A DNA stretch of 33,914 bases, taken from positions 1-33,914 of the forward strand of contig JBAUVS010000592.1 in the NCBI GenBank assembly GCA_049583345.1. The letters run 5' to 3'. The notes beneath the pieces are model-generated. The model was not told the DNA's origin. It did not search any database and saw only the letters and a list, made by a program, of their open reading frames with translations. A program made the position numbers and the translations under genes. This document shows, in pieces, positions 1,126 to 30,518 of this stretch (its first letter is position 1; every line of letters begins with the position of its first letter). The stretch is from Woeseiaceae bacterium (GTDB lineage: Bacteria; Pseudomonadota; Gammaproteobacteria; Steroidobacterales; Woeseiaceae).

Positions 1126-1304
1126 ATTTCAGTCCTCGAATCACGGGTTGCAGTTCCAGGAGCGACGTCGCATCGCCCTGCCTCAAAGATACCAGATAGC
1201 GAATGCCTGGCAATGAATACGGTTGCATCGGGTCGTGGCTACCGGTCGGATTGCTACAATGGCGCAGACAAGAGGATGAACCGACCTGCTCAGGGGGGGT
1301 ACGA

Positions 1305-5965: not shown

Positions 5966-6027
5966 GATTTACTGTCCCGTCGAGCTTGCGTGTTTATGTC
6001 GCGCCTGTCGGCGACTCGTGCACCTGA

Positions 6028-12112: not shown

Positions 12113-12652
12113 ATGTCCACTGATTCGCCCGTCGAAAGAATCCCGATGTGGCTTGCCGTCGCCTTGACGGTCGTCGCATCGATGCCCTTCGGCCTCTGGC
12201 TCGGCAAGTACAATTTCGCACTGTGGTGCTGTTTCATCGTGTGGGCGGAATATTTCGCTCTGGGAGCAAGCCCCGCGGCCCTGCGCCTGATCGTACCGAG
12301 TTTTTCCTACTCCGTTGTACTGACGGCCGTCACCCTTTGGGCCGTGCAACTGTTCGACTTCCTGCCCTCGCTCAGGACCGAGGGCGATCTCGCCGTGACG
12401 GTCGCTCTGTTCGCCGGCATCGCCTTGACCGTCTACACGATGCGGTACTCCAGGATCTTCCAGGATGGCTCCCTGCCCTTTTTCAATGGAATATCGATGG
12501 GGCTTGCAATCTATTTCACGGGCAGCTTCCCGGACTTCGGCGGCATCCTCCCGGCCGCGCTCGCCGCCGGTGCCTGGACCGTCCTGATGGGACTCTTCGG
12601 CTGCGCGTTGGGCGTATTCAACGTCTGGATTACTTTCCCCAGGCACCGTTAG
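12113..12652 (+). CDS. Small polytopic inner-membrane protein, possibly DUF1097 (YcdZ-like)
   Basis: 179 aa with about five hydrophobic helices and RBS GGGGG. The pattern LWCCFIVWAEYFALGA resembles the YcdZ family as I remember it. The family call is tentative. Confidence 0.6.
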   Translation: MSTDSPVERIPMWLAVALTVVASMPFGLWLGKYNFALWCCFIVWAEYFALGASPAALRLIVPSFSYSVVLTAVTLWAVQLFDFLPSLRTEGDLAVTVALFAGIALTVYTMRYSRIFQDGSLPFFNGISMGLAIYFTGSFPDFGGILPAALAAGAWTVLMGLFGCALGVFNVWITFPRHR

Positions 12653-12722: not shown

Positions 12723-13853
12723 TCAGGCATCACTGACGCCGTCCAGCAGCGGCTCGAGCCGCGGATATTCGGCGCCGTTCTCGGTGCACACGGCGAAATG
12801 CGCCTTCTCGGCGCCGGCGTACATCGCGACGCCGGCGTATTCACCGCGTTTGTTGAGCACGTAGAAGCGCAGATCGAACTTCGGCAGGCCGCGATCGTTG
12901 ATCAGGCGCTTCTCGACCGTGTTGGCCTTGACGCGCTTCAGGGCCGCGATCGCCGCGTCCTTGGGATGCTTTCCGCGCCGCATCTCCTCCACAATCAGGA
13001 AGGAGTTCAGGCCATACAGATTCGCTTCGCCCCGCCCGGTCGAACCCGCAGCGCCGACCTCGTTGTCGACGTACAGGCCCGCACCGAGGATCGGTGAATC
13101 CCCGACCCGGCCCGGAATCTTCCAGGCAAGGCCGCTCGTCGTCGTCACACCGCAAACGTCCCCCGAAGGATTGATCCCGTTGCAGTTGATCGTACCGTAG
13201 AAGCCCTCCGCGTCGATCAGTCCTTCGCGCACCATTTCCCGTGCCGCCCGCATGCCGGCCGCAATCCGCTCCGCCTCGCTCGGGTAGTGCCCCGGGTCCA
13301 CCCTGCGTTTCCATTCCAGCCATAGCTTGCGGGACGTGTCCGTGTTGAGATCGTCTTCGATCTCGAAGCCAACGTTTCTGGCGAAACGTTGCGCGCCCTC
13401 TCCTACGAGCAGGTGATGATCGGTCAGTTCCATTACGGCATGAGCCACATTCGAGGGCGTACGCACGCCTTCCAGGGCCGCGACACCGCCTGCCCGCCGC
13501 TTGGGGCCATGCATGACGCAGGAGTCGAGTTGCACGACGCCGTCGGCATTCGGCAGTCCACCGTATCCTACGCTGGTCTCCTCCGGATCGAGCTCGACGA
13601 TGTTAACGCCATGTATGAGCGATTCCAGCACATCGTCCCCTTCCTCCACCATGTGGCGGAAGGCCGTTTCCACGCAATTGGCGTCACCGCCGTTCTTGCG
13701 CGTATAGCCGTTTCCGGCCGAAATGATGACGGGTTTGGTGCGCCCGGTGACAACGGCAGGGGCTGCCTCGAGTACTCCTGCGGACGTTGCGGCGGCGAGG
13801 CCTGCAAGCGATCCCACGGTGATGAAGCCCCGTCGGCTGATTGTGTCGGTCAT
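12723..13853 (-). CDS. Ntn-hydrolase asparaginase family: glycosylasparaginase / isoaspartyl peptidase type, Tat-exported
   Basis: 376 aa with the twin-arginine leader MTDTISRRGFITVGSLAGLAAATSAG. The autoprocessing/nucleophile region is FYGTINCNG. Family blocks include TTTSGLAWKIPGRVGDSPILGAGLYVD and GAAGSTGRGE. RBS is GAGGAAG. Confidence 0.85.
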   Translation of the reverse strand: MTDTISRRGFITVGSLAGLAAATSAGVLEAAPAVVTGRTKPVIISAGNGYTRKNGGDANCVETAFRHMVEEGDDVLESLIHGVNIVELDPEETSVGYGGLPNADGVVQLDSCVMHGPKRRAGGVAALEGVRTPSNVAHAVMELTDHHLLVGEGAQRFARNVGFEIEDDLNTDTSRKLWLEWKRRVDPGHYPSEAERIAAGMRAAREMVREGLIDAEGFYGTINCNGINPSGDVCGVTTTSGLAWKIPGRVGDSPILGAGLYVDNEVGAAGSTGRGEANLYGLNSFLIVEEMRRGKHPKDAAIAALKRVKANTVEKRLINDRGLPKFDLRFYVLNKRGEYAGVAMYAGAEKAHFAVCTENGAEYPRLEPLLDGVSDA

Positions 13854-13954: not shown

Positions 13955-16627
13955 TCAGAACGAGACGTCCAGTCGTGCGTAGTAGGAACCCCCTTGATAC
14001 GGCGTTCCTTCTTTCCAGTACTGTATGCCGCGGTTGGTTTTCGGGTCGATCTTCTCCGGAACGGATTTCGGATAGTTGTCGAATACGTTATCCGCCCCGA
14101 TCGTCATTCGGATCGCGTCACTGATCTGATAGGCGGCGGATATGTCGATGAATACGTCCGAGGGGAGTTGGTCGACGATGTAGGATCCATCGGGATTCGT
14201 GTAGCCGAATGCCACTTTCTGTGCTCCCCACAATCGGCCCCGCGCTCCGAGTGTCAGTTTGTCGTTCAGGACGTAGTTTGCCGTCAGTACGGCGCGATGC
14301 GGCGGAGAGAACAACTCGGTTTGGAGATTTGTGATCTCGTCGGAGATTGCGGGATCGAATTTCGTTACGTCGGTCTTTACGTACGCGTACGCGAGTGACA
14401 GCGACAGTTGCGAGGAGAACAGATCCATCACGCGGGTGCCCACGACTTCCACGCCCTTCGTCGTGGTATTGAGGCCGTTGCCGTAGAATCTTGCTTCCGT
14501 CAGGAACGCCGCCCCGGGGAAGCCCGAATCGATCAACTCCTGAAACGCCGGAGCATAGGCCGGGTTCGATGCCTGATACCTTTGCGACAGCCGGATGCGA
14601 TCGTCGAGCTTGATCTGGAAAGCGTCGATCGTGATATCCGTGTAGTCGCCCGGCGTCCACACGAAGCCCAGTGAATAATTATTCGCTTTTTCCGCCTTTA
14701 GGGGAGACGCGCCCAACGCAATGGCCAGCGGATGGCTCGCGGGGAAGACGCCGCCATAGTTGACGGTGCCGCCGAAAAAGCCCGTAGTCAACTGCAGGTT
14801 GTCAATCTGGCCGAGCGACGGTGCGTGAAAACCGGTCGACACCGCGCCCCGGATCGCGAGGACATCCGGAATGAGTTGAAACCGTCCTGATACCTTCACG
14901 CTGGTGTTGTTGCCGAAATCCGAATAGTCCTCATAGCGAACTGCGGCGGTCAGGTTGAGTGCTTCGGTCACCTGCGCATCCAGGTCGACATAGGCAGCGT
15001 AACTGCTGCGCGTGGACTCGAAGAGCGCTGCAATCGGCGTTCCGGTGAAGCCGTTGGCGCCGACGGCAAGGTCTGATAACGGCCCCACCTTCCAGGAATT
15101 CTCCTCACCGTTGATGTTGTAATAATGTTCCCGGCGGTAATTCGCGCCGAACGAGATGAGCAGCGTGTCGATCGAGTCGGTCTTTACGGTATAGCCGAAG
15201 TCGGCATTGATTGCGCCTTCGATGTTGACGAGCCCGCCATTGTAGAAGCTCGTCTGCACGTTGGCGTAGTCGATGGAGCCGTCGGGGGCCATCGGTGCAC
15301 CGAGCGAAGAGTTTTGGGTGCCCCGGTTCCATATATCGACCCGGCTGCGGCCGAACGATCCCGACACGTCCCAGGTCAGCCCATTCGAACGTTCGCCGCG
15401 AACGCCGGCGTACGCGCCGAAGTCGGGGCCCTGAATCGTAATTCTGGGTGTGTATCCGGCCGGAAACGCCAGTTTTGGATCGTAGCCGACCGGCGCTGCG
15501 CCGTTTGTCGAGGTCGCGTTCGGGCCGTCCGCCAACAGGTAGGCGGCGTCGGCTGCGGCCTCGACGCCGATCAGGGCTTCGAGTTCAGGCAGTGTCAATT
15601 GGGTCGGGTTCATGTTGGAAGGAGGCGATCCGATACTGCCGTTTGGAAAGTGCAGCTCCGGGATGTCCGAACACGGCCGCAAACCGGGATGGTGGTGCGA
15701 GCCGCCCTCGCAATACAGGTTCGAGCGGTAGTTGGCCGTCTGCAGGTTGGAGATCTCGGCGAAATTGCCGAAGGTATATAGCTCAACGGATTCGGTGATG
15801 GGTATGGCCGAATTCCAGGTCACTTGCGTCATGTCCTGCGCGGTGATTCCGGCGTACTGCGCCTTCAATGGATCGATGTCGATCGTTACCCCTCTCCGCT
15901 CCCCGTCCGCAAGCATCGCAACCGCGTCGAGATGCGGCAGGTTTCTCTGGGTCGGGTCCTGCGAACTGTGCGATACAGTTACCGTGAGGAAGCCCTCGTC
16001 ATTCAGGAAATGAGTGCCGTATTTTCCGGCCACTGTGTACAGGGCTCCGTCGCCTTCGTAGTACTCGCTGTAGCCCGCACGCACGGACATGCCCTCCGAA
16101 GAATCCATGACGAGGTTGATCACGCCTGCGACTGCATCGGCACCATAGAGGGCGGATGCACCGTCGCGGAGTATCTCCACGTTACTCAGGCCGATCGTGC
16201 CGAAGGTGCTGACGTTCTGCTGCTGAATGCCGAGCTTGTTGACGATCGAGGATCGATGCACCCGTTTGCCGTTGAGGAGCAGCAGGATTTCACCGCCGTC
16301 GAGCCCGCGCAGATTCGTTTCTCTGGAAAAGGAATCCTGGTCCGACGATGATTCCCGATGCGCATAGTACGAGGGCGACACGTCCATGAGCGCATCCTTG
16401 ATGTCGGCCTGCGGCGTCTTTATCAACTCCGTTACCGGAATGACATCCACCGGTACGGTGGATTCCAATGCCGTCCTACCCTTGGCTCGCGTTCCGACGG
16501 AGACAATTACTTCCAGTACGTCCTTGTTGGCGGAATTTTCCGCCGGCTCGCCGGTTTGCTGTCCGGGCGCCGGGAAACTGGCGCCCAGCAGGGCGGCGCC
16601 GATGATACACAGTGCCTGCGTTCTCAT
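13955..16627 (-). CDS. TonB-dependent outer-membrane receptor 2
   Basis: 890 aa with the signal peptide MRTQALCIIGAALLGASFPAPG. Plug blocks are LEVIVSVGTRAKGRTALESTVPVDVI, NLRGLDG and VEILRDGASALYGADAVAGVINLV. The C-terminus is YYARLDVSF with a terminal Phe. Confidence 0.92.
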   Translation of the reverse strand: MRTQALCIIGAALLGASFPAPGQQTGEPAENSANKDVLEVIVSVGTRAKGRTALESTVPVDVIPVTELIKTPQADIKDALMDVSPSYYAHRESSSDQDSFSRETNLRGLDGGEILLLLNGKRVHRSSIVNKLGIQQQNVSTFGTIGLSNVEILRDGASALYGADAVAGVINLVMDSSEGMSVRAGYSEYYEGDGALYTVAGKYGTHFLNDEGFLTVTVSHSSQDPTQRNLPHLDAVAMLADGERRGVTIDIDPLKAQYAGITAQDMTQVTWNSAIPITESVELYTFGNFAEISNLQTANYRSNLYCEGGSHHHPGLRPCSDIPELHFPNGSIGSPPSNMNPTQLTLPELEALIGVEAAADAAYLLADGPNATSTNGAAPVGYDPKLAFPAGYTPRITIQGPDFGAYAGVRGERSNGLTWDVSGSFGRSRVDIWNRGTQNSSLGAPMAPDGSIDYANVQTSFYNGGLVNIEGAINADFGYTVKTDSIDTLLISFGANYRREHYYNINGEENSWKVGPLSDLAVGANGFTGTPIAALFESTRSSYAAYVDLDAQVTEALNLTAAVRYEDYSDFGNNTSVKVSGRFQLIPDVLAIRGAVSTGFHAPSLGQIDNLQLTTGFFGGTVNYGGVFPASHPLAIALGASPLKAEKANNYSLGFVWTPGDYTDITIDAFQIKLDDRIRLSQRYQASNPAYAPAFQELIDSGFPGAAFLTEARFYGNGLNTTTKGVEVVGTRVMDLFSSQLSLSLAYAYVKTDVTKFDPAISDEITNLQTELFSPPHRAVLTANYVLNDKLTLGARGRLWGAQKVAFGYTNPDGSYIVDQLPSDVFIDISAAYQISDAIRMTIGADNVFDNYPKSVPEKIDPKTNRGIQYWKEGTPYQGGSYYARLDVSF

Positions 16628-16704
16628 GTTGAACCCCCAACTTATTGGTATCGGCTTTCCGGCTTACGCGTGGATTTCGGATTCAAATTCGCGTCATACG
16701 GAAC

Positions 16705-16760
16705 TTGCAGTCTATCCCAGCAATTCAATATATTCAACTGAGGATAAAATAATGGGAATT
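16705..16760. promoter_or_regulatory. Degenerate copy C of the AT-rich module, between cytochrome c and receptor 2
   Basis: Plus-strand sequence TTGCAGtctatcccagcaATTCAATATATTCAACTGAGGATAAAATAATGGGAATT resembles copy B with small indels. On the minus strand it reads TTGAAT-N17-TAGACT, a plausible promoter for receptor 2. The orientation is ambiguous. Confidence 0.4.
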
Positions 16761-16820
16761 ATAAGAAAACGACAGGAATACGCGCTTGCGGGCCCATGGC
16801 CCGGCGCGGGCGAGGCATGC

Positions 16821-17240
16821 TCACTCGTTTCGGGGTGCGGCCTGGCATTCCTCTCCGGAGACGTATCTCGCCAGTGCCTCAATCTCGGAATCACTCAGAC
16901 CAATCGCCTGGTCGATCATCAGACCTTTAGTCAGTGCGTCGATGACATAGTCCTTCGAGAATTTCGCCATCATTTCTCTGGTCGGTATGCCGGGCACGAC
17001 GTCATGGCATTTGGCACATCGCTGCTGGTACAAGGCCGCACCGGCCGACAGAGCTTCGGATTCGACAGTGGCCTTCGAGCGCTGGTCCCGGCCGCTGACC
17101 GAGTCGTAGTCTAACGGCGATCCGAGACGGACTTCGGTCCCATCGCAGCCCATACCCGTGTACGGCACTGCCGCAAGTACCAGGGCGGTAACGAGGATCG
17201 GTGTCCGGTGTGAGTGGCGCCTCCAAATCGGGTACATCAT
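16821..17240 (-). CDS. Exported monohaem c-type cytochrome
   Basis: I prefer the start at MMYPIWRR (ATG 17240), which gives a hydrophobic leader ILVTALVLAAVPYTGMGC. The haem motif lies in GAALYQQRCAKCHD (CxxCH). A distal Met region GLMIDQA is followed by LSDSEIEALARYV, typical of class I cytochromes c. Confidence 0.75.
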   Translation of the reverse strand: MMYPIWRRHSHRTPILVTALVLAAVPYTGMGCDGTEVRLGSPLDYDSVSGRDQRSKATVESEALSAGAALYQQRCAKCHDVVPGIPTREMMAKFSKDYVIDALTKGLMIDQAIGLSDSEIEALARYVSGEECQAAPRNE

Positions 17241-17489
17241 TCGCTTTGACTCCGGGCTTGCGGAAGTCTGCAGGGGCTCCGCGGCCGATTGTCGTGTAGT
17301 CGCGGCCAGACCCGTCGGCCCGTAAAACAGCATACGGCGAAGAGCGCTTGTGCTCGCTGCAACGACTGACAAGGATCAACAGGACATCGCGCAGAACATC
17401 CTGAGCATCGTCCTGCCATTTTTCTTTACTGCGGACTTCAGCAATGACTATACTGCCGCTAGTGTGTCCATTTCCGTCCGACGGCGTAG

Positions 17490-17504
17490 TTCAATCATAT
17501 TGAA
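17490..17504. promoter_or_regulatory. Palindromic operator candidate (copy E) in front of the XRE/cupin regulator gene
   Basis: TTCAATcatATTGAA is a perfect 6-3-6 palindrome. An AT-rich tail TATAAATAAAAATACTGGAAAT follows and resembles the tail of copy C (GATAAAATAATGGGAAT). A candidate promoter TTTACT (17425-17430)-N18-TATACT (17449-17454) lies upstream, so the palindrome would sit in the transcribed leader. Confidence 0.45.
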
Positions 17505-17532
17505 TATAAATAAAAATACTGGAAATAGTCAA

Positions 17533-18087
17533 GTGACCATAGGCGAACGGCTTAGAAAAATCAGGAGAACTCAGGGACGCACCCTCAAAGAAATCGCCGG
17601 CAACTCCAATATCACCGTCAGCTTGCTATCCAAGATCGAGAACAACAAGTCGCAACCTCCGATCGCAACGCTTACCCGCATTTCCAGCGCTCTGGGAGTC
17701 AGCACTTCATCGCTGCTTAGCGACGATGATGAACCCGGAACGATTTTCGTCCCGGCGAAGAACACGGCGCAGACGACACGCGCCGATAAGGGCTATGAGT
17801 TTTTTAGCTTCGCGACGCAGCGGCCGTCGAAACTGATGGACGTATTCCTGTTCTCGGCAAAGAAAGGAGAAGTGACCCCGCAAGCCATGTGTCACAGCGG
17901 TGAAGAATTCATCTACGTCCTGAGCGGCAAGATGGAATATTCAGTCGGCAGTGCGCAATTTACGCTAAAAGCCGGAGATGCGCTGTATTTTGATTCAGAG
18001 GCGGATCACGACCTGCAGCCGCTTACCAAGGAAGTAAAATACCTCGCAGTGTTCTGTTCCCGGCCGAAGAATAAGAAGAAGAAATAG
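17533..18087 (+). CDS. XRE-family HTH transcriptional regulator with C-terminal cupin sensor domain
   Basis: The GTG start at 17533 gives 184 aa. The HTH region is IGERLRKIRRTQGRTLKEIAGNSNITVSLLSKIENNKSQPPIATLTRISSALGV and the cupin region is HSGEEFIYVLSGKMEYSVG...LKAGDALYFDSEADHDL. The upstream part of the track ORF is AT-rich non-coding. By eye the gene is less GC-rich than its neighbours. Confidence 0.85.
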   Translation: MTIGERLRKIRRTQGRTLKEIAGNSNITVSLLSKIENNKSQPPIATLTRISSALGVSTSSLLSDDDEPGTIFVPAKNTAQTTRADKGYEFFSFATQRPSKLMDVFLFSAKKGEVTPQAMCHSGEEFIYVLSGKMEYSVGSAQFTLKAGDALYFDSEADHDLQPLTKEVKYLAVFCSRPKNKKKK

Positions 18088-19887
18088 TCAGTCTTTCCCG
18101 GATTTCAGTCCGAAGGCCTGGATACGGTCCGTACCGACGATAACCCGTCCGTTGACGACGGCGGGTTCGTTGTATTTTCCGCTAGTGTGCAGTTCGCCAT
18201 CCCGGCTGCGCCACAGCACCTCCAGTGTCTCGCCGTCCATGGCATAGAGAATCGGCTGTGGCGGATTGTCCGCGTCCCACGGAGACACGGCTCTGGTCGC
18301 ATTCATGTCCAGCACCCATATGATGGCGTCCCGGACGCCGTTGCTACTAATCACCGGCGAACCGGGATTCAGGAACACTTGCGAGAGATTCTGGCGATCC
18401 ACGGACAGATAGGCGGGTCTGCCGGGTTCAGTCACGATGGCCATACGCACCAGGCTGGGTGGGATATTTTCGACGGACTCGGCGTTGACCTTCGTGTTAC
18501 CTGTGGCGTAGAGATAATGGTGCCCGGCGCCGTCGTGATAATAAGCCGCCGTCGTTCGGCTCTTCGCGTAGTCGTACCATCCCAGGTCGGCCGAATAGGG
18601 TCCGAATACGTTCAACGGACCGCGTTGGCCGAATTGCGGTTGATCTTCGGGAGGCAGCAGCGACAGGTCGCTGGTCGAGTCGTCACTGCAAGGGTGCCGG
18701 CGCACGAGACTGCCCGGCATGTTGTCACGATCCAGCAGGAACGCGTTGCCCTGCTTGCCGCCGACCAGCGCAAGCAGCCGCGGAGTACTGGTCTGCGCAG
18801 GATCAAGGTCGATCACCAGCGTGCCGCTGCTACCGAGATCGATATCGTTGGATTGCGCGCGGCAGTAGTCGAATGGCGTGAATGTGCCGACGAGTTCAAA
18901 GCCTGCGGGGCCGTCGTTCAACTGGAGTATCGACTGGCCCCAGTTGTGGTCGCTGTCAGGAAAGACCCCGGCGATACCTGCCTTGTTGACGGCAAAAACG
19001 ACACTTGCGCCGGTGGCTATATACACGCGATCTTGTTCGTCCACGGCCGTTCCGCTGGCCGCCCACATGCCGCCCTGATGTTCGGCCGTCACCGCGGTCG
19101 TCGAGAATGCCGAAGCGACTTTCGCTTCGTTCGTATCCACTGAGACCAGCCAGCCACTGAACGTGTCCTTGCCGAAGGGAACGTACAGCCGCGTGCCGTT
19201 GCCATTCAGGTTCAGCGCGCCCCGCTGGATCACGTACGGCCTGTCAGGAAACTCTGTCGGGCCGTTCCGATTCATCCCGGGAACGTTGATGGTGGCGTGG
19301 CTGATCTCGACAGGCCAGCCTGGGGCCAACTGGCCGCTGCCGAGATCGAACGCGTGGACCTGGTAGTTCGCCGTATTGTCGCAACTGACGACGTACACGC
19401 GATGCGTTGCCGCATCGATGACGGGCGTGCCCAGCACGGCCTCGCGACCGTTGACGCAAGGTTCCGTCGTCAGTCGGCGGCTCCACAGAATTTCGCCGGG
19501 AGGGATATCGCCGTGCTCTCCGGCATTGATCGCATAGAGGTAACCGGTCCCAGTGGCCGCGATCACGACGGCAGTGCTTTCGCCGTCATGCGGCCCACCC
19601 TCGAGCCGCAGCTTGGACACGTACAGTGGCGAAGCGAAGATCCGCGGCGCTTCGTTATTGAAAGAATCGAGCTGCGGCGACTCCCACTTGAGTTCCAACC
19701 CGGAACCGGCAACGTTATCCGGCGTGAGGATCGTCTCGAAGCGGTTCCAGCCACTGCGCTTCCGGTCGTTGTGTTGCATCAGCTTGTCGACGCCCGGAAC
19801 CGCCAGGTCTCCGGTCGACACGCAGGCGCAGACGAACAGCCACACGCCAAGCAGCACCAATCCGCCGCGTAGCGGCAGCAATCTCAT
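18088..19887 (-). CDS. Exported beta-propeller repeat protein (PQQ-like/BamB-like repeats), function unknown
   Basis: ATG 19887-19885 overlaps the upstream stop 19886-19884 (ATGA), giving 599 aa. The leader is MRLLPLRGGLVLLGVWLFVCAC. Recurrent blade-like segments include ASPLYV, GTPVID...RVYVVS, YQVHAFDLGSG, RVYIATG, LYAMDGETLEVLW and NGRVIVGTD. I saw no vicinal Cys-Cys or other quinoprotein hallmark. Confidence 0.7.
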   Translation of the reverse strand: MRLLPLRGGLVLLGVWLFVCACVSTGDLAVPGVDKLMQHNDRKRSGWNRFETILTPDNVAGSGLELKWESPQLDSFNNEAPRIFASPLYVSKLRLEGGPHDGESTAVVIAATGTGYLYAINAGEHGDIPPGEILWSRRLTTEPCVNGREAVLGTPVIDAATHRVYVVSCDNTANYQVHAFDLGSGQLAPGWPVEISHATINVPGMNRNGPTEFPDRPYVIQRGALNLNGNGTRLYVPFGKDTFSGWLVSVDTNEAKVASAFSTTAVTAEHQGGMWAASGTAVDEQDRVYIATGASVVFAVNKAGIAGVFPDSDHNWGQSILQLNDGPAGFELVGTFTPFDYCRAQSNDIDLGSSGTLVIDLDPAQTSTPRLLALVGGKQGNAFLLDRDNMPGSLVRRHPCSDDSTSDLSLLPPEDQPQFGQRGPLNVFGPYSADLGWYDYAKSRTTAAYYHDGAGHHYLYATGNTKVNAESVENIPPSLVRMAIVTEPGRPAYLSVDRQNLSQVFLNPGSPVISSNGVRDAIIWVLDMNATRAVSPWDADNPPQPILYAMDGETLEVLWRSRDGELHTSGKYNEPAVVNGRVIVGTDRIQAFGLKSGKD

Positions 19888-21176
19888 TCGCCCACGACCT
19901 CCCGCCACCCGTTGTTGAACGTAATGGCGAGCTTCGCGTCCACGTCGCCGATATTTCGCGCCTTGTGCAGGACTCCTTGCGGGATGCTGACCGTATCGCC
20001 CGCGGACATTTCCACGGTTTCGTCACCCACAGTCTGGGCGATCCTGCCGCTCAGCACATGCAGTATCTCGTCGCAATTTGGGTGAAAGTGCAGCGAATTC
20101 GATTCGCCCGGCCGCACGGTCGCCATACCGACCGTCATGGTCTTCGAATTTTTGAGTGGCCCTGAAACATACCATTCGATTTCGCCCCACGGTTTTTCGA
20201 CGCGCTGATCGTCCGCCGAATGGCTCACGATCGCCTCCGGCAATCGACGCGGATATTCACCTGCCGGAAACTCCGCCTGTTCGGCGGCATTGGCTGCGGT
20301 AGTCGTTGTCGCACCACCTTCCGGGACGTCGACGCCAGCCGTCCACAGCACGGCGTTCAAAAACGCGGTTCTGAGGGACGGGTTGTCCCAGGTTGCCAGA
20401 AAGTGCGCGCCGACGTATGCGAACGACCTGCCGCCGTTCTCTCGCTCGTAGGCCCAGGCGACGTTATACCGCTTTATCTCGAATTCGACTGTCGGTTCGC
20501 TGTGCTGGTAGTGAATCGGCAGTTCCGCGGTCCAGATCGGCGTAATTTTGCCAGCGGTACTGAATTCCAGCGTCGGAAAATACTCGTCGACCAGCACTGT
20601 ATCCTCGAGTCCGCGCGTGATCGGGTGCCCGGTCTCAGCGACGTTCAGTAACGCGGGCTTGGTCGTACGGTTGAAATATCCATACCGCGCCGCACCGACC
20701 CAGTCCTTCATCGGCACGGTCGTATTTCCTTCCGGGAGGGTAAAGGACTGGTGCAGGGCGACGAGGCCGACACCACGATCCACCAGCTTCGCAATCACGG
20801 CTTGCTTGCGCGCGTCCAACAGAGGATTGCGGTCTCTGCCGTTGAAGTAGAAGACGACCGTCGCCGCGTCCTCGAGTGCGTCCGCCGACGGCCATCCGTA
20901 AGGGTAGGCCTCGATCTCGAACTCCGGATGCGCCACCAGTTGCGGTGACCGACGCAGCATGTCTTCCATCAGCTGCACGCCGTGAGACCAGTCGTGTTCC
21001 CCGGGCGCAAAGACTCCGTCGCCGCCGATGAGGACGATCTTGCTGGTTGCAGGCTTCGCGCAAGCGGACAAACCCGCCCCGACGAGCAGCGTGGCGGCAA
21101 GCAATACCCCCGCATATGCTATGACGCCCGGCTGACGGCCGTCTCGGGTCCCTCGATTTTCCTTTCGCATATCCAT
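19884..21176 (-). CDS. ThuA-like domain fused to a C-terminal metal-binding cupin; predicted lipoprotein (paralog 1)
   Basis: The start MDMRKENRG (ATG 21176 or 21170, with GGGAGG just upstream) gives a leader ending in the lipobox LSAC. ThuA-like region is KIVLIGGD...GEHDW...VVFYFNG...GVGLVALHQS...AWAYERENGGRSFAYVGAHF...LNAVLWTAG. Both cupin motifs are intact: HFHPNCDEILHVLSG and GDTVSIPQGVLHKARN. Confidence 0.75.
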   Translation of the reverse strand: MDMRKENRGTRDGRQPGVIAYAGVLLAATLLVGAGLSACAKPATSKIVLIGGDGVFAPGEHDWSHGVQLMEDMLRRSPQLVAHPEFEIEAYPYGWPSADALEDAATVVFYFNGRDRNPLLDARKQAVIAKLVDRGVGLVALHQSFTLPEGNTTVPMKDWVGAARYGYFNRTTKPALLNVAETGHPITRGLEDTVLVDEYFPTLEFSTAGKITPIWTAELPIHYQHSEPTVEFEIKRYNVAWAYERENGGRSFAYVGAHFLATWDNPSLRTAFLNAVLWTAGVDVPEGGATTTTAANAAEQAEFPAGEYPRRLPEAIVSHSADDQRVEKPWGEIEWYVSGPLKNSKTMTVGMATVRPGESNSLHFHPNCDEILHVLSGRIAQTVGDETVEMSAGDTVSIPQGVLHKARNIGDVDAKLAITFNNGWREVVGE

Positions 21177-21237
21177 CAATCCTCCCGCCAGCACGCCATC
21201 GATCTTTTCATAGTGCTGAAGAACTCGTTCAAAAAGC

Positions 21238-22077
21238 TCAAGATGCCTTTGCGAGCCGCAGAGCCTTGAGCGCCTCGACCTGTCCCCTGATGCCGCGTTC
21301 CGTCGGCAGGCGCTCGATGCTTGAGGCTCCGAAGAAGCCATTCACGCCCGGCATCCTCTCCATGGCCGGACCCACCGATGCGGGTTCGTCGAACGGGCCA
21401 CCGTGGCAGATCACCAGCAGCTCCTTGTTCACGCTGCGGCCCGCACGCGCGATCTTCATCACCAGCTCGATGCTTTCCTCCATAGGGGAGGCGACAGCCG
21501 CACCGATACTGCCGGAGACCGTGAGCCCGACATGAGCAACCAGCATGTCCGCGCCGGCCTCGGCCATCGCGCGCGCCTGTTCCTGATCGAAAACATACGG
21601 CGAGCAGAACAGCCCCATCTCGTGCGCGATGGAGATCATCTCGATCTCCTTGTCGAAGCCCATCCCGGTGCCTTCCAGGTTGGCGCGAAAATCACCATCG
21701 ATCAGGCCAACCGTCGGGAAATTCTGGACGCCGGAAAATCCGGCTTCGGACAGCTGCCGGAGGAATACGGGCATCAGCCGAAACGGATCGGTGCCGCAAA
21801 CTCCGGCCAGTACCGGAATTCCCTTGACGACGGTTAATACTTCCGCCGCCATTTCCATTACGATGCCGTTCGCATCGCCATAGGGCATCAGCCCTGCAAG
21901 AGAACCGCGGCCCGCCATGCGGTACCGGCCCGAATTGTAGATGATGAGCAGGTCCGCACCACCGGCCTCCGCAAACTTGGCGGATATGCCGGTGCCCGCG
22001 CCACAACCGATGATCGGCTTCCCTGCGGCTACCTGGGACCTCAGCCGGTCGACTATTTCGTTGCGAGAGAGAGCCAT
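21238..22077 (-). CDS. Phosphoenolpyruvate-hydrolase-like TIM-barrel protein (partner of the Tm-1-like protein)
   Basis: 279 aa, no signal peptide, RBS GAGGAGGAA. Blocks are GKPIIGCGAGTGISAKFAEAGGADLLIIYNSGRYRMAGRGSLAGL, GVQNFPTVGL and ADMLVAHVGLT. Confidence 0.75.
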   Translation of the reverse strand: MALSRNEIVDRLRSQVAAGKPIIGCGAGTGISAKFAEAGGADLLIIYNSGRYRMAGRGSLAGLMPYGDANGIVMEMAAEVLTVVKGIPVLAGVCGTDPFRLMPVFLRQLSEAGFSGVQNFPTVGLIDGDFRANLEGTGMGFDKEIEMISIAHEMGLFCSPYVFDQEQARAMAEAGADMLVAHVGLTVSGSIGAAVASPMEESIELVMKIARAGRSVNKELLVICHGGPFDEPASVGPAMERMPGVNGFFGASSIERLPTERGIRGQVEALKALRLAKAS

Positions 22078-22125
22078 GGATTCCTCCTCGGTATTGTTCC
22101 GTACGTTTCGCCGTGGTCGCCGCGG

Positions 22126-23340
22126 CTATTGCTCAATGAGCTGCAGGAGCTGATCAGTCGCGGCAGACGAAAACTCGGCATCGTTGATGTTGTGATTGAG
22201 CTCGATCACGGGGATATCGCTCCGTACTTTCCGTTTGATCGCCTCGAAACAGGCCGCGTCGGCCTCAGGATCCCAGAATCGGTCGCCCTCCGAGTCGAGC
22301 ATCGAAACACCGCGAAGCGGCAGCAGGATTGCGCACGCGGCGGTCGAACGGTTCGCAGCGTTAGCGATCATTTCTCCGATGCGAGTGTTCTCATCGACAT
22401 TGGTACGCAGCAGCGTCACGTTCGGATTCCATTCATAAAGCAACCGATCCTGATACTTTTGGGGCACCGAGTCTCTGGAACCGAAATTCGCCATGTCGAC
22501 GCATCCGGGCACGAGCACGGCCGGGACGCCGGCCATTGCTGCGGCCAGGCACCGGTTCTGTCCTGCATCGAAAACGCCCCCGCAAACGAAGTCGGCGAGT
22601 TCCGTCGTTGTGATGTCCAGCACTCCCTCGACCTGCCGTTCCGCGATCAGAGATTCCATCGTACGTCCGCCGATGCCGGTGCAGTGGAATATGAGCGTTT
22701 CGAAACCGTGTTCGCGGAGTCTCTCACTGGCTGCCGAGACAGCCGTGGTCGTGTTGCCGAACATCGAGGCTGCGATCAGTCGCTGGTCCGTATGCGTGTC
22801 CTGTCGCGGCTGCGTTGATACCATGCCCGCCGCAGCCCCGGCCGCGTTCGCGAAGATCCGGCGACTGATGCGATTCAGACCCGCGACGTCCACTATAGAA
22901 GGAACAAATACAATGTCTTTGGTTCCGGCATAGGCGCTGACGTCGCCGCCCCCAACCGTGGAAACCATCACCTTCGGCACGCCAACGGGCAGAGCTCGCA
23001 TGGCCGCCGTAACGACCGATGTGCCTCCGCTGCCGCCCATCCCCATGATGCCGTCGATCTCACCGGCCGCGAATAACCTGGTAACGACGTTCTCGACGCC
23101 CCTGGTGACGGCTTTCATCGCCTCGTCCTTGTGCTTGCCGGACTTGAATTTGCCGATATCGCCGCCGCCCGATTCGATGACGCTTTCGCGGCTGACATCG
23201 GGATTGAAGTACGGTTCCCCTATGATGCCGAAATCGACGGTGAGGACGCTTACCCCGTGGCTCTCCAGGATCTCGCGCACATATTCGAATTCCTTACCCT
23301 TTGTGTCGAAAGACCCCACCAGGGCGATTGTCTTTTTCAT
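22126..23340 (-). CDS. Tm-1-like ATP-binding protein (UPF0261 family)
   Basis: The start MKKTIALVGSFDTKGKEFEY (ATG 23340, GGAG upstream) gives 404 aa with no signal peptide. Blocks are GMGGSGGTSVVTAAMRALPVGVPKVMVST, SMFGNTT, FHCTGIGGRTME, DITTTELAD and VPGCVDMANFG. Confidence 0.8.
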   Translation of the reverse strand: MKKTIALVGSFDTKGKEFEYVREILESHGVSVLTVDFGIIGEPYFNPDVSRESVIESGGGDIGKFKSGKHKDEAMKAVTRGVENVVTRLFAAGEIDGIMGMGGSGGTSVVTAAMRALPVGVPKVMVSTVGGGDVSAYAGTKDIVFVPSIVDVAGLNRISRRIFANAAGAAAGMVSTQPRQDTHTDQRLIAASMFGNTTTAVSAASERLREHGFETLIFHCTGIGGRTMESLIAERQVEGVLDITTTELADFVCGGVFDAGQNRCLAAAMAGVPAVLVPGCVDMANFGSRDSVPQKYQDRLLYEWNPNVTLLRTNVDENTRIGEMIANAANRSTAACAILLPLRGVSMLDSEGDRFWDPEADAACFEAIKRKVRSDIPVIELNHNINDAEFSSAATDQLLQLIEQ

Positions 23341-23498
23341 TTCGTTACTCCACGCCGACCGGCCTGGGCCGGGAGTCTGACAAATACCGCTCCTCGTACG
23401 AGGCAAAGGTGTTCGTAGCTGAACTGCCCTCCGGTACCGGGACTTGGATTTCGAATCCGTGGATCCTGCCGATTGGGTTCGGTTCCGGAGTGCGGTGC

Positions 23499-24830
23499 CT
23501 ATTCTCCGACTACTTCTCGCCAGGCCGTATCGAAACTGATGGCGAGCTGCGCGTCTTCGTCACCAATATTCGTTGCATTGTGGTGCACACCCTGCGGAAT
23601 GCTTATCGTGTCACCGGCGGACATTTCCACCGTTACCCCGTTCATCGAATGAAGGATCTTGCCGCTCAAGACGTGGAGCACCTCGCTGCAGTTCGGATGG
23701 AAGTGCACCGGGTTCGCTTTTCCGGGCAGAACCGTCGCCAGACCCACCGTCATCGAGTTTGAGTTGCCCAGCGCACCGGAGACGTACCACTCGATGCGCC
23801 CCCACGGCAGCTCGACAAGCTCGTAATCGTCTGGCTTACTGACGACAGCGTTAGTTATCCGCGTCGATTCACCGCCGGGAAACGACAGCTTGTTTGCCGC
23901 GTCCGGCTTCGCGTTTGTCGTGGCGCCCGCGGGCGGTACATCCTTGCCGGCCGTCCATAAGATTGCATTCAATAGTGCTGTCCTCGCCTGCACATCATCC
24001 CAACTTTTTTGGAAGTGACCGCCGCTGTATGCGAACGATCGGCCCCCATTCTTCCGTTCGTAGGCCCACGCGACTACATAGGCCGCGGGTGGAATGGATG
24101 CCGTCGGTACGCCTTCCAGATAGTGGATAGGCAATTCGGCTGTCCAGACCGGTGTTATCTTGCCGTTGGAATTATTGAATTCCAGCGTCGGATAGTACTC
24201 ATCGTAATGCACGAAGTTTTCGAGTCCGCGCAGGACCGGGTGATTACCAGTGCCGACAATCAACTCCGCGGGTTTCGTGGTCCGGTCGTGCTTGCCGTAA
24301 CGTACGCCGCCGAGCCATTGTTGCATCGGTACGCCAGTGTCCCCTTTTGGAAAGGTAAACGACTGGTGTAACGCGACCAGTCCCACTCCGCGATTCATCA
24401 GCTGTGCGAACACGTCGCGCTTTTTGGGGTCGAGCAACGGGTTTGATCCATCTCCATTGAAATAGAGGACGACAGTGGCTGCATGCTGTAGCGATTCATC
24501 GCCGGGCCAACCATACGGGTGCGCGTCGATTGTCAGATCCGAATACGCCGCCAGTTGGGGTGACTGTTTCAGCATCTCCTCGATGAACTTCACGCCATGT
24601 GGCCAATCGTGCTCGCCCGGCCTGCTCGTCCAATCGCCGCCGATGAGTACGATCCTGTTGCCTCGTTCCGCAGCATGGGCCGGGATCGTCGCGACGACTA
24701 CGGCCGCAATCACGGCAAGTGAGACAATCGCAACCCGCAAGATCGCCAAATAAGACGGCCACTCGCGATCCGTCACGGGAGCGAAGCTGGCCGGCAAATG
24801 CTGCCTATGATTGCGGGATCGTCGTGGCAT
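23499..24830 (-). CDS. ThuA-like domain fused to a C-terminal metal-binding cupin; exported (paralog 2)
   Basis: 443 aa with RBS AGGAG 9 nt upstream. The hydrophobic leader ends in AHAAE. It is collinear with paralog 1 over its whole length and ends identically in WREVVGE. The cupin motifs are HFHPNCSEVLHVLSG and GDTISIPQGVHHNATN. Confidence 0.8.
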   Translation of the reverse strand: MPRRSRNHRQHLPASFAPVTDREWPSYLAILRVAIVSLAVIAAVVVATIPAHAAERGNRIVLIGGDWTSRPGEHDWPHGVKFIEEMLKQSPQLAAYSDLTIDAHPYGWPGDESLQHAATVVLYFNGDGSNPLLDPKKRDVFAQLMNRGVGLVALHQSFTFPKGDTGVPMQQWLGGVRYGKHDRTTKPAELIVGTGNHPVLRGLENFVHYDEYYPTLEFNNSNGKITPVWTAELPIHYLEGVPTASIPPAAYVVAWAYERKNGGRSFAYSGGHFQKSWDDVQARTALLNAILWTAGKDVPPAGATTNAKPDAANKLSFPGGESTRITNAVVSKPDDYELVELPWGRIEWYVSGALGNSNSMTVGLATVLPGKANPVHFHPNCSEVLHVLSGKILHSMNGVTVEMSAGDTISIPQGVHHNATNIGDEDAQLAISFDTAWREVVGE

Positions 24831-24903
24831 CTCGTTTCACTCCTGACCTCTGAAGATATGCATTACACCGCGATGCGCTGCCCGGCATCCTCATTCACAT
24901 CTA

Positions 24904-24938
24904 TTGACGGTAGCTCAACTATATGTAATCCGTCAAGC
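24904..24938 (-). promoter_or_regulatory. Module-related box F between aspA and ThuA-cupin paralog 2
   Basis: The minus strand reads GCTTGACGGATTACATATAGTTGAGCTACCGTCAA. It shares GCTTGAC and the ATTACA(A)TAT..TTGA.CTA box with copy D but lacks the 9-nt spacer. It also forms a 7-bp inverted repeat, TTGACGG (24904-24910) and CCGTCAA (24930-24936). Confidence 0.35.
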
Positions 24939-24967
24939 AACAATGCCTCCGCTGTCGGTGATACGAA

Positions 24968-26365
24968 TCAGGGCGAAAGCAGCTTGCCAATGGTCGAATC
25001 GTCCATCACACCTCTGGCCCGCAAAACGTCGAGTATCGATTCGCCGGACGTTTCCGCTTGTTTGACAATTTCAGCGGCCGCATCGTATCCGATCAGAGGC
25101 GTCAACGCGGTTGCCAGAGCGGAACTCCTCAGCAATAGTTCGCGACATCGCTCTGCATTGGCCACGATGCCGGTGACACAACGATCCCGCAAGGCGACTG
25201 CCGCTCTCTCGAGCAACTCGATCGACTCCAGGATTTTCCAAACAATGACAGGCTGCATGGCGTTGAGCTGCAGCTGCCCGGCATCGCACGCGAGCATGAT
25301 CGTCAAATCGTTCACCATAACAGTAAAGCAGGCCTGATTGACGGCTTCCGGGATGACCGGATTTACCTTGCCCGGCATGATTGATGATCCGGCCTGCACC
25401 TTGGGCAAGCGGATTTCTCCCAGCCCGGTACGTGGACCGCTGCAAAGCAGCCGCAGGTCGTTTGCTACCTTCGACAACTTCACAGCGACACGCCTCAGCA
25501 TGCTCGAACATAGCAGCATCGCGCCCGGATCGGACGTCGCCTCGACCATCGACGCAGACGGCCGGATACTGATGCAGGAAATTTCGGAGAGATGATTGAT
25601 CACTTTCGCACGATACTGGTTCGACGCATTGATCCCGGTGCCGATCGCTGTGCCGCCCAGATTTACTTCGGCAAGCAGGTTCTCCGCTTCTCGCAGCCGT
25701 TCGGCATCTTCCCCGAGCATTACCGCAAACGCCCGGAATTCGTCGCCGAGAAGCATCGGTACTGCATCCTGTAACTGCGTGCGGCCTACCTTGACGATTT
25801 CGTCAAATTCGACCGCTTTGCACAGGAACGTCTCGGTGAGTTCCACAAGACGCGACCTCAGGTCCCGTAAATTCCGTATGACCGTGATACGCGCCGCCGT
25901 CGGGTAAACGTCGTTCGTGGACTGCGAACGGTTGACGTCGTCGATTGGGTGAAGACGGTCGTAGGCGCCGTATGGGTAACCCAATGACTTCAATGCGAGG
26001 TTCGCGATGACCTCGTTGACGTTCATATTGGTCGAGGTCCCCGCCCCGCCCTGAAGGACGTCGATCGGGAAAGCTCGGCCGTGTCGGCCCGCGGCAATCT
26101 CGTCGCAAGCCAGGCATATCGCTTCGCAAGTGGCCGCCGACAGCAGTCCCGTATCGTAATTTGCCAGCGCAGCCGCTTTCTTGACCAGCGCGAACGACTC
26201 CACGAAATGTCTGAGCGATCCGATTGTCCGCACGGTAAAAGTGAAGTTCTCGAGGGCGCGTATGGTGTGGACGCCATAGCAATCGTCGCCGGCGACCGTA
26301 ACAGGGCCGAGTCCGTCGTCCTCGATGCGCGATTCTGCCTCCATGCCTGACGCCGCCTTGCTCAT
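24968..26365 (-). CDS. aspA: Aspartate ammonia-lyase (class II fumarase/aspartase family)
   Basis: By my recollection it is collinear with E. coli AspA. Shared blocks are RIEDDGLG, YGVHTIRALENF, GGAGTSTNMNVNEV, SQSTNDVYPTA, GRTQLQDAVPM, EVNLGGTAIGTG, the SS-loop signature GSSIMPGKVNPV and AGQLQLNAM. The start is uncertain; candidates are 26413 TTG, 26389, 26365 and 26344. Confidence 0.9.
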   Translation of the reverse strand: MSKAASGMEAESRIEDDGLGPVTVAGDDCYGVHTIRALENFTFTVRTIGSLRHFVESFALVKKAAALANYDTGLLSAATCEAICLACDEIAAGRHGRAFPIDVLQGGAGTSTNMNVNEVIANLALKSLGYPYGAYDRLHPIDDVNRSQSTNDVYPTAARITVIRNLRDLRSRLVELTETFLCKAVEFDEIVKVGRTQLQDAVPMLLGDEFRAFAVMLGEDAERLREAENLLAEVNLGGTAIGTGINASNQYRAKVINHLSEISCISIRPSASMVEATSDPGAMLLCSSMLRRVAVKLSKVANDLRLLCSGPRTGLGEIRLPKVQAGSSIMPGKVNPVIPEAVNQACFTVMVNDLTIMLACDAGQLQLNAMQPVIVWKILESIELLERAAVALRDRCVTGIVANAERCRELLLRSSALATALTPLIGYDAAAEIVKQAETSGESILDVLRARGVMDDSTIGKLLSP

Positions 26366-28189: not shown

Positions 28190-28978
28190 TCAAGAGATCG
28201 GAAGCAACCGGTCAGGAGAAGCGGCATTGACCATTGCCCTCGCCAGGACCTCCGTGGGGTTCACCAGCAGGTTGCCGAAGTGGCCTTCCGAGCCGGCAAA
28301 GGCGAGCGGGATCTCGGTACAACCGAGGATCACGCTGTCCGCGTTGCAGCGATCGACGAGATACCGCACCGTATCGAACATTGCACGTTTTGCCTTTTCC
28401 GTCACGGGGTAACTGGCCGCCTTGACACCGTACGAGCGATCGACAATCGCGTCGTGCAACCGTCGCTGCAGCTCATTGTCGGGCAAAACGATCTCGATGT
28501 CCGTGCCATCGAAATGCGACTGATACACGGCTGAGCTTATTGTGCCAGTGGTTGCGAGCAATCCCACGCGGCGTTGTTTGGCGGCAAGATCAACTACGAA
28601 GTCACGTACCGATGCGATCATGTCGATGAGCATCACGTCGAGGCCATTGTCGGTTATCAGCTTCAGCAACACGGAATAGATAGGCAGTGCGTGCGCCGTA
28701 TTGCAGGGCATGCCGATCACCGTCGCTCCCGCGGCGGCAAGCTCCCTCACGATTCCGAAGATCGGGTATGCCGGATTCTCACCGCCGTGCAACAGATATT
28801 CGGTGCGATCCTGAATTCCACAGCTTCGCGAGACGAGGATCACCGACAGATGGTCCTGGTCCCGTTGCGCTCGTGTATTCCTGTAGACGCGTTGCAGGAG
28901 ATCGACGCCCGCAGCAGGCCCCATGCCTCCGACGATGCCCAGCACCGCGCCGGGGTCAGCCTTTTCCATCGTCGGCAT
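28190..28978 (-). CDS. Aspartate/glutamate racemase family protein, aspartate racemase type (PLP-independent)
   Basis: 262 aa. Blocks are LGIVGGMGPAAG, the first catalytic Cys in MPCNTAH, and the second catalytic Cys in ILGCTEIPL. Confidence 0.85.
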   Translation of the reverse strand: MPTMEKADPGAVLGIVGGMGPAAGVDLLQRVYRNTRAQRDQDHLSVILVSRSCGIQDRTEYLLHGGENPAYPIFGIVRELAAAGATVIGMPCNTAHALPIYSVLLKLITDNGLDVMLIDMIASVRDFVVDLAAKQRRVGLLATTGTISSAVYQSHFDGTDIEIVLPDNELQRRLHDAIVDRSYGVKAASYPVTEKAKRAMFDTVRYLVDRCNADSVILGCTEIPLAFAGSEGHFGNLLVNPTEVLARAMVNAASPDRLLPIS

Positions 28979-30329: not shown

Positions 30330-30518
30330 GGTTGCCTCCGCCACGCCTCTCCGGTGAGGTGCCCAGGGCCGGGTCGGCGGTGACCGGTGCGCGGCGATTG
30401 TGTGGAATTGGAGTCTGATCGAACAACCCGGTCGCTAACGACCGTGTAACCTGAGCGGTGACACCCGATGACAGGGAGGTAGCAAAGCGACCCTAAAATA
30501 GCAGTCATCGCGTTTCGC

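Follow-up and report, generated by a model that had tools for sequence, protein, structure and literature searches.

A ThuA-cupin, beta-propeller and Tm-1-like gene block in a Woeseiaceae bacterium as a possible local form of a widespread two-compartment catabolic module

Introduction

Periplasmic, cytochrome-c-linked oxidation of sugars is already known; the components of the gene block considered here are largely uncharacterized. This block occupies positions 18088-24830 of a 33,914-nucleotide stretch of DNA from a Woeseiaceae bacterium (contig JBAUVS010000592.1 of assembly GCA_049583345.1), called the window below. It encodes two ThuA-cupin fusion proteins, a Tm-1-like protein, a PEP-hydrolase-like TIM barrel and a beta-propeller. 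As the evidence stands, the chances are about even that the block is the local form of a widespread catabolic module, one whose steps are divided between two compartments and whose substrate is carbohydrate-like (a glycoside, a polyol or an amino sugar). The author of a preliminary description of this DNA knew of no described system with such a composition. The literature agrees: searches for ThuA with cupin, UPF0261, PF09370, ThuA/ThuB, and DUF1080 with pyrroloquinoline quinone (PQQ) found no description of such a module or of its propeller family.

Parts of the block do resemble described systems. One group comprises the 3-ketoglycoside systems, which include ThuAB of rhizobia and Agrobacterium, LacABC of Caulobacter and BT2156-BT2160 of Bacteroides thetaiotaomicron. 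Here, oxidation is periplasmic and depends on cytochrome c, the 3-ketoglycoside dehydrogenase ThuAB includes ThuA, and the PF06439 domain has been shown experimentally, with BT2157, to be a 3-keto-disaccharide hydrolase (PMC8121099). A second group holds the type II quinohaemoprotein alcohol dehydrogenases (ADH IIB and ADH IIG of Pseudomonas putida HK5, 1KV9 and 1YIQ, and the Comamonas enzyme, 1KB0). These are periplasmic, and join an eight-bladed propeller to a C-terminal cytochrome c.

The cytoplasmic part of the block has relatives of a different kind. MarK (Saro_1862 of Novosphingobium aromaticivorans) is an ATP-to-ADP kinase of phenolic ketones (PMC12624787); it shares the two-domain UPF0261 fold with tomato Tm-1. 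The TBST family, to which PEP-hydrolase-like proteins belong, co-evolves with UPF0261, and both are fused in plant Tm-1 (PMC5028733). The UPF0261/TBST pair is also very widespread by itself (PMC5028733). The founding PEP_hydrolase/TBST structure, Mll9387 (2P10), is a structural-genomics entry.

The gene block and its closest relatives

In transcription order, the five genes of the block are these:

23499-24830, minus strand: gene A, ThuA-cupin fusion, paralog 2, 443 aa (Pfam ThuA and Cupin_2)
22126-23340, minus strand: gene B, Tm-1-like (UPF0261) protein, putative ATP-dependent kinase, 404 aa (both UPF0261 domains in Pfam)
21238-22077, minus strand: gene C, PEP-hydrolase-like (TBST) TIM barrel, 279 aa (Pfam PEP_hydrolase)
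19884-21176, minus strand: gene D, ThuA-cupin fusion, paralog 1, lipoprotein, 430 aa (Pfam ThuA and Cupin_2)
18088-19887, minus strand: gene E, exported beta-propeller, 599 aa (AlphaFold2 model and Foldseek)

The raw open reading frames (ORFs), all on the minus strand, run 23499-24830, 22126-23406, 21238-22077, 19884-21341 and 18088-19908. The starts of B (23340, MKKTIALVG), D (21176) and E (19887) were chosen by inspection; that of D is preceded by GGAGG, spaced 4 nt from the ATG. An ATGA overlap between D and E can be read directly at 19884-19887, and D is, as it appears, translationally coupled to E. Leaders were likewise assigned by inspection of N-termini only. A begins with a hydrophobic leader of the signal peptidase I (SPase-I) type, ending AHA|AE; the lipobox LSAC is found in D, and the leader of E ends in VCAC, where the Ala-Cys is conserved among homologues. 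B and C have no leader.

Thus, most of the layout in the preliminary description holds. The five co-directional minus-strand genes are confirmed by the ORF list, by Pfam and by the model of E; the ATGA join of the last gene to its predecessor is present in the sequence; and the N-termini agree with two leaderless cytoplasmic proteins accompanied by exported ThuA-cupins, one with an SPase-I type leader (A) and one with a lipobox (D). That description also spoke of an envelope-spanning module. Exported and cytoplasmic parts are indeed there, but a physical complex does not follow from them, a two-compartment pathway being equally compatible.

How does this block compare with the described systems? 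With the 3-ketoglycoside systems it shares the pairing of a ThuA domain with a dehydrogenase, and PF06439 is fused to or beside the module in related loci, although it is absent from the window. The dehydrogenase candidate in the window is the propeller, whereas 3-ketoglycoside systems use a Gfo/Idh/MocA protein (ThuB) or a GMC flavoprotein. Further, ThuA is fused here to a metal cupin, and the Tm-1-like/TIM pair is attached. Membership in the ThuAB system was therefore rejected; the partner is a propeller, and tblastn found no Gfo/Idh/MocA homologue in the window.

With the type II quinohaemoprotein alcohol dehydrogenases the likeness is one of architecture, since propeller followed by cytochrome c is the commonest arrangement in the family of E. 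Unlike them, E has no Pfam PQQ repeats, no vicinal Cys-Cys and no sequence similarity to these enzymes; the cytochrome c of the window is a separate gene; E is partnered with a ThuA-cupin; and many relatives of E have an extra PF06439 domain. Finally, MarK and tomato Tm-1 belong to the same two-domain UPF0261 fold family as B. MarK is encoded in an acvCDEF carboxylase operon, where it has no TIM-barrel partner; the partner of B is a PEP-hydrolase-like protein, an arrangement to be compared with the plant Tm-1 fusion. For C, Mll9387 gives a fold but no reaction.

Recurrence across species

A pattern scan of one genome per species of the Genome Taxonomy Database (GTDB) returned 173 relatives of the fusion, from which 79 loci were kept and analysed. 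A full-length ThuA-cupin was present in 49 species-representative loci, all of them from metagenome-assembled genomes (MAGs), and propellers were counted within 10 kb of it. These counts rest on tblastn, because greedy ORF clustering, misled by false antisense ORFs in GC-rich DNA, missed some genes.

A propeller gene lies in 28 of the 49 loci, in 22 of them directly downstream on the same strand. The Tm-1-like gene, the TIM gene or both are found in 27, with the pair complete in 25. Propeller and Tm-1-like/TIM genes come together in 12 loci, among them every one of the Acidobacteriota loci (7/7). The propeller occurs without the pair in 16/49 and the pair without the propeller in 15/49; the six loci with neither include four truncated contigs. 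Module loci come from Gammaproteobacteria, Alphaproteobacteria, Acidobacteriota, Verrucomicrobiota and Planctomycetota. Searching in the reverse direction, from homologues of the propeller, also leads to ThuA-cupin, UPF0261 and PEP_hydrolase genes close by (loci L084, L085 and L086). Where spacing between ThuA-cupin and propeller was read elsewhere, it was tight: a 4-nt overlap of the called genes in L091, and gaps of 5-10 nt in L088 and L090.

The preliminary description had proposed to look at gene neighbourhoods, and held that its view would fall if the adjacency were accidental. Co-occurrence across the 49 loci shows that it is not. A conserved unit that mixes exported with cytoplasmic components is likewise borne out in the five bacterial groups just listed.

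Its symmetry, in contrast, is not a property of the module. Two ThuA-cupin paralogs, flanking the cytoplasmic pair, are confined to the window, to L001, a MAG locus nearly identical to it (~95%), and to L087 (73%). In L088 and L089, where the ThuA-cupin is single-copy, the order is regulator (divergent), ThuA-cupin, propeller, cytochrome c, Tm-1-like, TIM. The apparent symmetry is thus the product of a lineage-specific duplication of the ThuA-cupin gene. A and D are ~61% identical to each other; the single-copy orthologue in L088 is 59% identical to A versus 51.5% to D.

The propeller and its cytochrome c

E has no match in Pfam (E<=0.01) or in NCBIfam. Its AlphaFold2 model has a mean predicted local distance difference test score (pLDDT) of 91.6, and the best Foldseek matches of that model are eight-bladed PQQ alcohol and methanol dehydrogenases (1KV9, 8GY2 and 1YIQ; E 1e-17 to 1e-15; template modelling (TM) score ~0.55). 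It is because of these matches that the earlier label, a beta-propeller, can be called right. The family of E is large: at least 1397 homologue clusters were found in a word-indexed search, and 2329 representatives at 50% identity with E<=1e-3. It has no Pfam model.

Residues D348 and D350 of E are invariant in a 49-sequence alignment, and D350 in a second alignment (A4) as well. The D348-x-D350 pattern is reminiscent of the lanthanide motif known from PQQ dehydrogenases (bioRxiv 10.64898/2026.07.10.737718), a resemblance that may serve as a lead only.

In most homologues, the propeller is fused to a C-terminal cytochrome c domain, and in forms of ~900 aa to PF06439 too. E itself ends without either. 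Two genes beyond its end bear on this point:

17533-18087, plus strand: regulator with an XRE-type helix-turn-helix (HTH) and a cupin, 184 aa (Pfam HTH_3 and Cupin_2)
16821-17240, minus strand: exported monohaem cytochrome c with the haem motif CAKCH (Pfam Cytochrome_CBB3)

By tblastn, this cytochrome c matches the domain within the fused propeller ORFs of seven loci (L003, L004, L010, L013, L029, L041 and L053). In L088, the cytochrome c is a gene of its own, immediately after the propeller. The window gene is the counterpart, now split off, of the C-terminal domain found in the propeller family. Since most homologues have this domain joined to the propeller, the gene at 16821-17240 is part of the module, and the limits first drawn for the block, 18088-24830, are too narrow.

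In the window, the convergent XRE-cupin gene separates the cytochrome c from E. The stop codons of the regulator (plus strand) and of E (minus strand) abut at 18087/18088, with zero intergenic nucleotides. The arrangement is consistent with insertion of the regulator between the propeller and its cytochrome c.

Two further observations concern propellers elsewhere. On the Vicinamibacterales-like contigs L083-L085, a DUF1326 protein of 119 aa is encoded directly downstream of a propeller that lacks the cytochrome (P0156). In L083 and L084, the module is disrupted by transposases.

The ThuA-cupins and the cytoplasmic pair

Both ThuA-cupins are well above the Pfam gathering cut-off for ThuA (PF06283), which is 33.4 bits. 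A scores 68.4 bits for ThuA and 57 bits for Cupin_2; D scores 52.8 and 64 bits. The cupin metal ligands, HxH...E...H, are H363, H365, E370 and H404. The first three are invariant in a 65-sequence alignment, where H404 is nearly so, and all four are invariant in a 16-sequence alignment. Judged by these positions, the cupins of A and D carry a metal-binding residue set. The best match of the cupin profile among Protein Data Bank (PDB) sequences is the periplasmic manganese protein MncA (2VQA, E 1e-12). The AlphaFold2 model of D (pLDDT 90.2) has a cupin half that resembles oxalate decarboxylase, MncA, DddK, phosphomannose isomerase and KdgF. Cupin matches dominate the Foldseek search with this model, from which nothing was gained on the ThuA half.

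B contains both UPF0261 domains (205 bits for the N-terminal and 278 bits for the C-terminal domain). It matches Tm-1 (3WRY, E 1e-80) and MarK (9MPY, E 3e-63) in the PDB, and is 32% identical to the latter. The statement that none of the five proteins has an assignable reaction is therefore outdated; MarK, a UPF0261 member, is an ATP-dependent kinase (PMC12624787). A D-T-K triplet of B aligns with D14-T15-K16 of MarK, where the ATP-binding lysine is K16 (K20 in Tm-1). B also retains G195 and H219 (MarK numbering), which bind the acceptor hydroxyl.

The acceptor pocket tells another story. In MarK, the acetovanillone pocket is formed by G195, T196, H219, F283, I285, H304 and H348. B differs at five of these seven positions, with N, M, N, W and L, and thus places Asn, Asn and Trp where the pocket of MarK is hydrophobic. 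For this reason, B is not a MarK orthologue, and its acceptor is probably more polar than that of MarK. Orthology with this aromatic kinase was rejected on a second count as well, as no acvCDEF genes were found near B.

C covers positions 1-266 of the 267 in the PEP_hydrolase profile (PF09370, 397.7 bits), and matches Mll9387 (2P10) over its full length (E 3e-98).

Carbohydrate context, fusions and exchanged partners

Outside the window lineage, the company kept by these genes is largely that of carbohydrate metabolism. In Verrucomicrobiota and Planctomycetota, the gene downstream of the ThuA-cupin encodes either a GSDH (PQQ sugar dehydrogenase)-PKD-cytochrome c-CBM6 protein, which stands where the propeller would, or a stand-alone PF06439 protein. 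Further neighbours include DUF7133-cytochrome c proteins, LacI regulators, DUF1080, sulfatases, glycoside hydrolases (GH116, GH127 and GH172), PfkB and sugar transporters. In Sphingomonas, the propeller-cytochrome c gene comes after a ThuA that has no cupin.

Actinobacteria, mainly Kribbella, present the other half. They have a stand-alone, leaderless cupin that is 50-59% identical to the cupin half of the fusion, in the order Gfo/Idh/MocA dehydrogenase, stand-alone cupin, Tm-1-like, TIM. In ~24 of 32 actinobacterial loci, the cupin has the Tm-1-like/TIM pair downstream of it or beside it; sugar ABC transporters and sulfatases often adjoin the set. ThuA thus keeps company with a cytochrome-c-linked dehydrogenase, and the Tm-1-like/TIM pair with the cupin, so that the fusion ties two sub-modules together.

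A second conserved type of cluster was seen in L081 (a Sphingomonas MAG) and L091 (a gammaproteobacterial contig). Here, a TonB-dependent receptor (TBDR), PfkB, a ~715-aa protein with an FGE-sulfatase domain, GH127 and a class III CoA-transferase surround ThuA(-cupin) and propeller-cytochrome c genes. Neither locus has the Tm-1-like/TIM pair, and PfkB may take the kinase role there.

One apparent fusion is probably not real. P0042, in which PF06439 seems joined to a ThuA-cupin, was rejected as a true fusion; it has a second, internal signal peptide and is likely two adjacent genes merged by gene calling. P0074 is the lone case of a beta-lactamase fold fused to a ThuA-cupin. Hydrolases of this fold recur near the module, in L091 at 5610-6938 beside the TBDR and in the window at 29070-30344, the latter two being 29% identical over 200 residues.

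A proposed pathway

A two-compartment route can be drawn from what was observed: the gene content, the domain identities, the fold of E, the fusions and the co-occurrence across phyla. Its catalytic steps and their order, the cofactor of E and the class of substrate are proposed.

In the periplasm, E, a propeller lipoprotein, would act with the cytochrome c in the manner of a quinohaemoprotein dehydrogenase, oxidizing the substrate and passing electrons to the respiratory chain. The metal-binding ThuA-cupins A and D would work with E or on its product, by isomerization, ring opening or elimination, for example. The oxidized product would then be taken up into the cytoplasm. There, B would phosphorylate a hydroxyl with ATP, as MarK does, and C would convert the phosphorylated intermediate. 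The XRE-cupin protein would regulate the gene set.

A bolder form of this proposal goes further, and should be held only tentatively. It makes E the representative of a new dehydrogenase family, with a PQQ-like fold and an unrelated sequence, that supplies a metal cupin with an oxidized intermediate resembling a sugar; the Tm-1-like kinase and TBST would phosphorylate and then cleave or rearrange the product. This would be an unrecognized route present in multiple phyla.

Several facts weigh against the proposed pathway. Searches of the PDB with E, by single sequence and by profile, returned no PQQ alcohol, methanol or quinohaemoprotein dehydrogenase; the sole match of the profile was a short, non-significant one at the level of the repeat (3HXJ, E 0.11). 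Nor does E contain a CC dipeptide, sought as the vicinal Cys-Cys of PQQ dehydrogenases. Neither search gave a sequence link of E to PQQ enzymes, and, to judge from its model, E is like the PQQ quinohaemoprotein dehydrogenases in fold only. With no sequence similarity, no Cys-Cys and a TM score of ~0.55, PQQ dependence, and even dehydrogenase activity, of E are putative. Then, the cupin is periplasmic in Gram-negatives and cytoplasmic in Actinobacteria, and the model needs one step that is feasible in either compartment. In the window itself, tblastn and Pfam found no gene for PF06439, Gfo/Idh/MocA or xylose-isomerase-like proteins, and the neighbours in this lineage are peptide and aspartate genes. 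Last, since only 12 of the 49 loci hold both halves and each half also occurs alone, the two may not serve one pathway.

That last point leads to the strongest alternative, in which two independent modules are often parked together: a periplasmic ThuA(-cupin)/propeller-cytochrome c module and a cytoplasmic Tm-1-like/TIM module, with different substrates but a shared island or regulator. The frequency with which the halves are found apart (16 and 15 of 49 loci), the clusters of L081 and L091 that have PfkB and no pair, and the very wide distribution of the UPF0261/TBST pair alone (PMC5028733) all fit such an arrangement. It is nevertheless unlikely. The cupin links the halves, being fused to ThuA by the propeller in Gram-negatives and standing alone upstream of the pair in ~24/32 actinobacterial loci. 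Moreover, the full set forms one co-directional run in 7/7 Acidobacteriota loci and in L088.

Regulator and neighbours in the window lineage

The preliminary description called the XRE-cupin regulator dedicated to the block. Homologues do lie beside the module in L087 (82% identical), L088 (67%) and the Opitutales locus L053 (50%). Its start is probably at 17533, picked to match homologues of 180-186 aa. Just upstream of this likely start, at 17490-17504, is the palindrome TTCAATCATATTGAA; a second palindrome, TTGACGG-N19-CCGTCAA, stands upstream of A at 24904-24936. Either is a possible operator. When the stretches preceding A and B and the gap between regulator and cytochrome c were compared, they had no 9-mers in common that would mark a shared operator, only these two local palindromes. 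Scans for promoters and terminators gave nothing usefully above shuffled expectation, and Rfam (E<=1) found no riboswitch or other RNA element in 16500-25200.

The block was also said to be flanked by aspartate-pathway genes. The flanks do include AspA (NCBIfam PRK12273, 647 bits) and the XRE-cupin regulator, together with an SSS transporter and an amino-acid racemase. To call this last an aspartate racemase goes too far. The best NCBIfam model for the gene at 28190-28978 (minus strand) is the cysteate racemase CuyB, which it matches with 172.5 bits versus a cut-off of 190; it passes only as a generic amino-acid racemase.

Beyond the cytochrome c are two genes that accompany the module in this lineage:

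13955-16627, minus strand: TonB-dependent receptor, candidate importer (orthologues by the module in L001, 81%, and L088/L089, 59%)
12723-13853, minus strand: exported Ntn-hydrolase of the Asparaginase_2 family, a lineage-specific neighbour, with a Tat-like leader (RRGFITVG)

The receptor is a conserved neighbour of the module only in the gammaproteobacterial lineage of the window. A role as PQQ importer, like PqqU, was considered and rejected; it matches just the colicin I receptor, weakly and in the plug domain. Of the proteins matched, the Asparaginase_2 protein most resembles the Elizabethkingia glycosylasparaginase 1P4K (E 2.6e-52), with 181 bits versus ~94 bits for isoaspartyl peptidases. 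Its substrate may be glycosyl-asparagine, from which it would free aspartate, as opposed to isoaspartyl peptides. Its orthologue in L088 is 69% identical and adjoins the TBDR and the regulator.

These neighbours suggest another substrate. In the lineage of the window, the module could handle a beta-aspartyl or glycosyl-asparagine conjugate (a glycopeptide or a peptidoglycan-derived fragment), together with the peptidases and aspartate genes encoded nearby. In L088, despite identities of 49-69%, both the TBDR (13955) and the Asparaginase_2 gene (12723) still adjoin the module and its regulator, and an M20/M28 peptidase and an SDF transporter are close by, while L087 retains S58, DUF3604, PhoD and M19. 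The products of a glycosylasparaginase are aspartate and a glycosylamine, which would link AspA to a sugar-oxidizing module. Glycosylasparaginase activity is, however, inferred from similarity only. Across the 48 other species loci in the set of 49, the module is found with none of those genes (AspA, racemase, S58, M19, beta-lactamase-fold protein, Asparaginase_2). A conjugate as substrate is thus improbable as a separate explanation, and it overlaps the two-compartment pathway rather than excluding it. Attachment of the block to non-canonical peptide catabolism, as first described, holds in one gammaproteobacterial sublineage (the window, L001, L087 and L088) but not elsewhere.

A non-catabolic role, lastly, is very improbable: an MncA-like cupin with a cytochrome c might serve periplasmic metal or redox homeostasis (MncA, 2VQA, being the best PDB match of the cupin profile, E 1e-12), a part in signalling would suit the TIM barrel, once named "TIM-barrel signal transduction protein", and an antiviral function could be drawn by analogy from plant Tm-1, which inhibits a viral replicase (PMC5028733), but the module lies regularly among glycoside hydrolases, sulfatases, LacI regulators, transporters and TBDRs, MarK shows that a UPF0261 protein can be a metabolic kinase (PMC12624787), and anti-phage defence was rejected, as PADLOC matched neither A-E nor the cytochrome c and only generic HTH models hit the regulator.

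More distant genes complete the picture of the window. A DUF3604 protein (747 bits, Pfam) is encoded next to a PhoD-like phosphatase both in the window, at 4535-7941 (minus strand), and in L087, at 16493-19881, so that the pair is conserved. A polytopic membrane protein of 179 aa at 12113-12652 (plus strand) has no Pfam match and is 85% conserved in L087; at a comparable place in L088 lies a DUF1097 membrane protein. At the left end are a GH97 glycoside hydrolase (1203-3344, plus strand) and a [2Fe-2S] subunit of a molybdenum hydroxylase (664-1125, minus strand). Because of these two, the catabolic array of the window is not purely peptide-directed.

Implications

Gene order and fusion link four poorly understood families across distant phyla: ThuA, a cupin subfamily, the propeller family and UPF0261/TBST, the last conserved in bacteria as well as plants. 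The two-compartment pathway gives all four together one testable hypothesis. It bears on the native function of Tm-1-like proteins, of which MarK is so far the sole assayed member. In its bolder form, if true, it would give the UPF0261/TBST pair, which plants later joined into Tm-1, a native biochemical role for the first time. Experiments could start from cultured Kribbella species, which have the cytoplasmic version. The module is frequent among uncultured Acidobacteriota, Verrucomicrobiota and Gammaproteobacteria of soil and water, where it may be a sizeable and overlooked route of periplasmic carbon oxidation.

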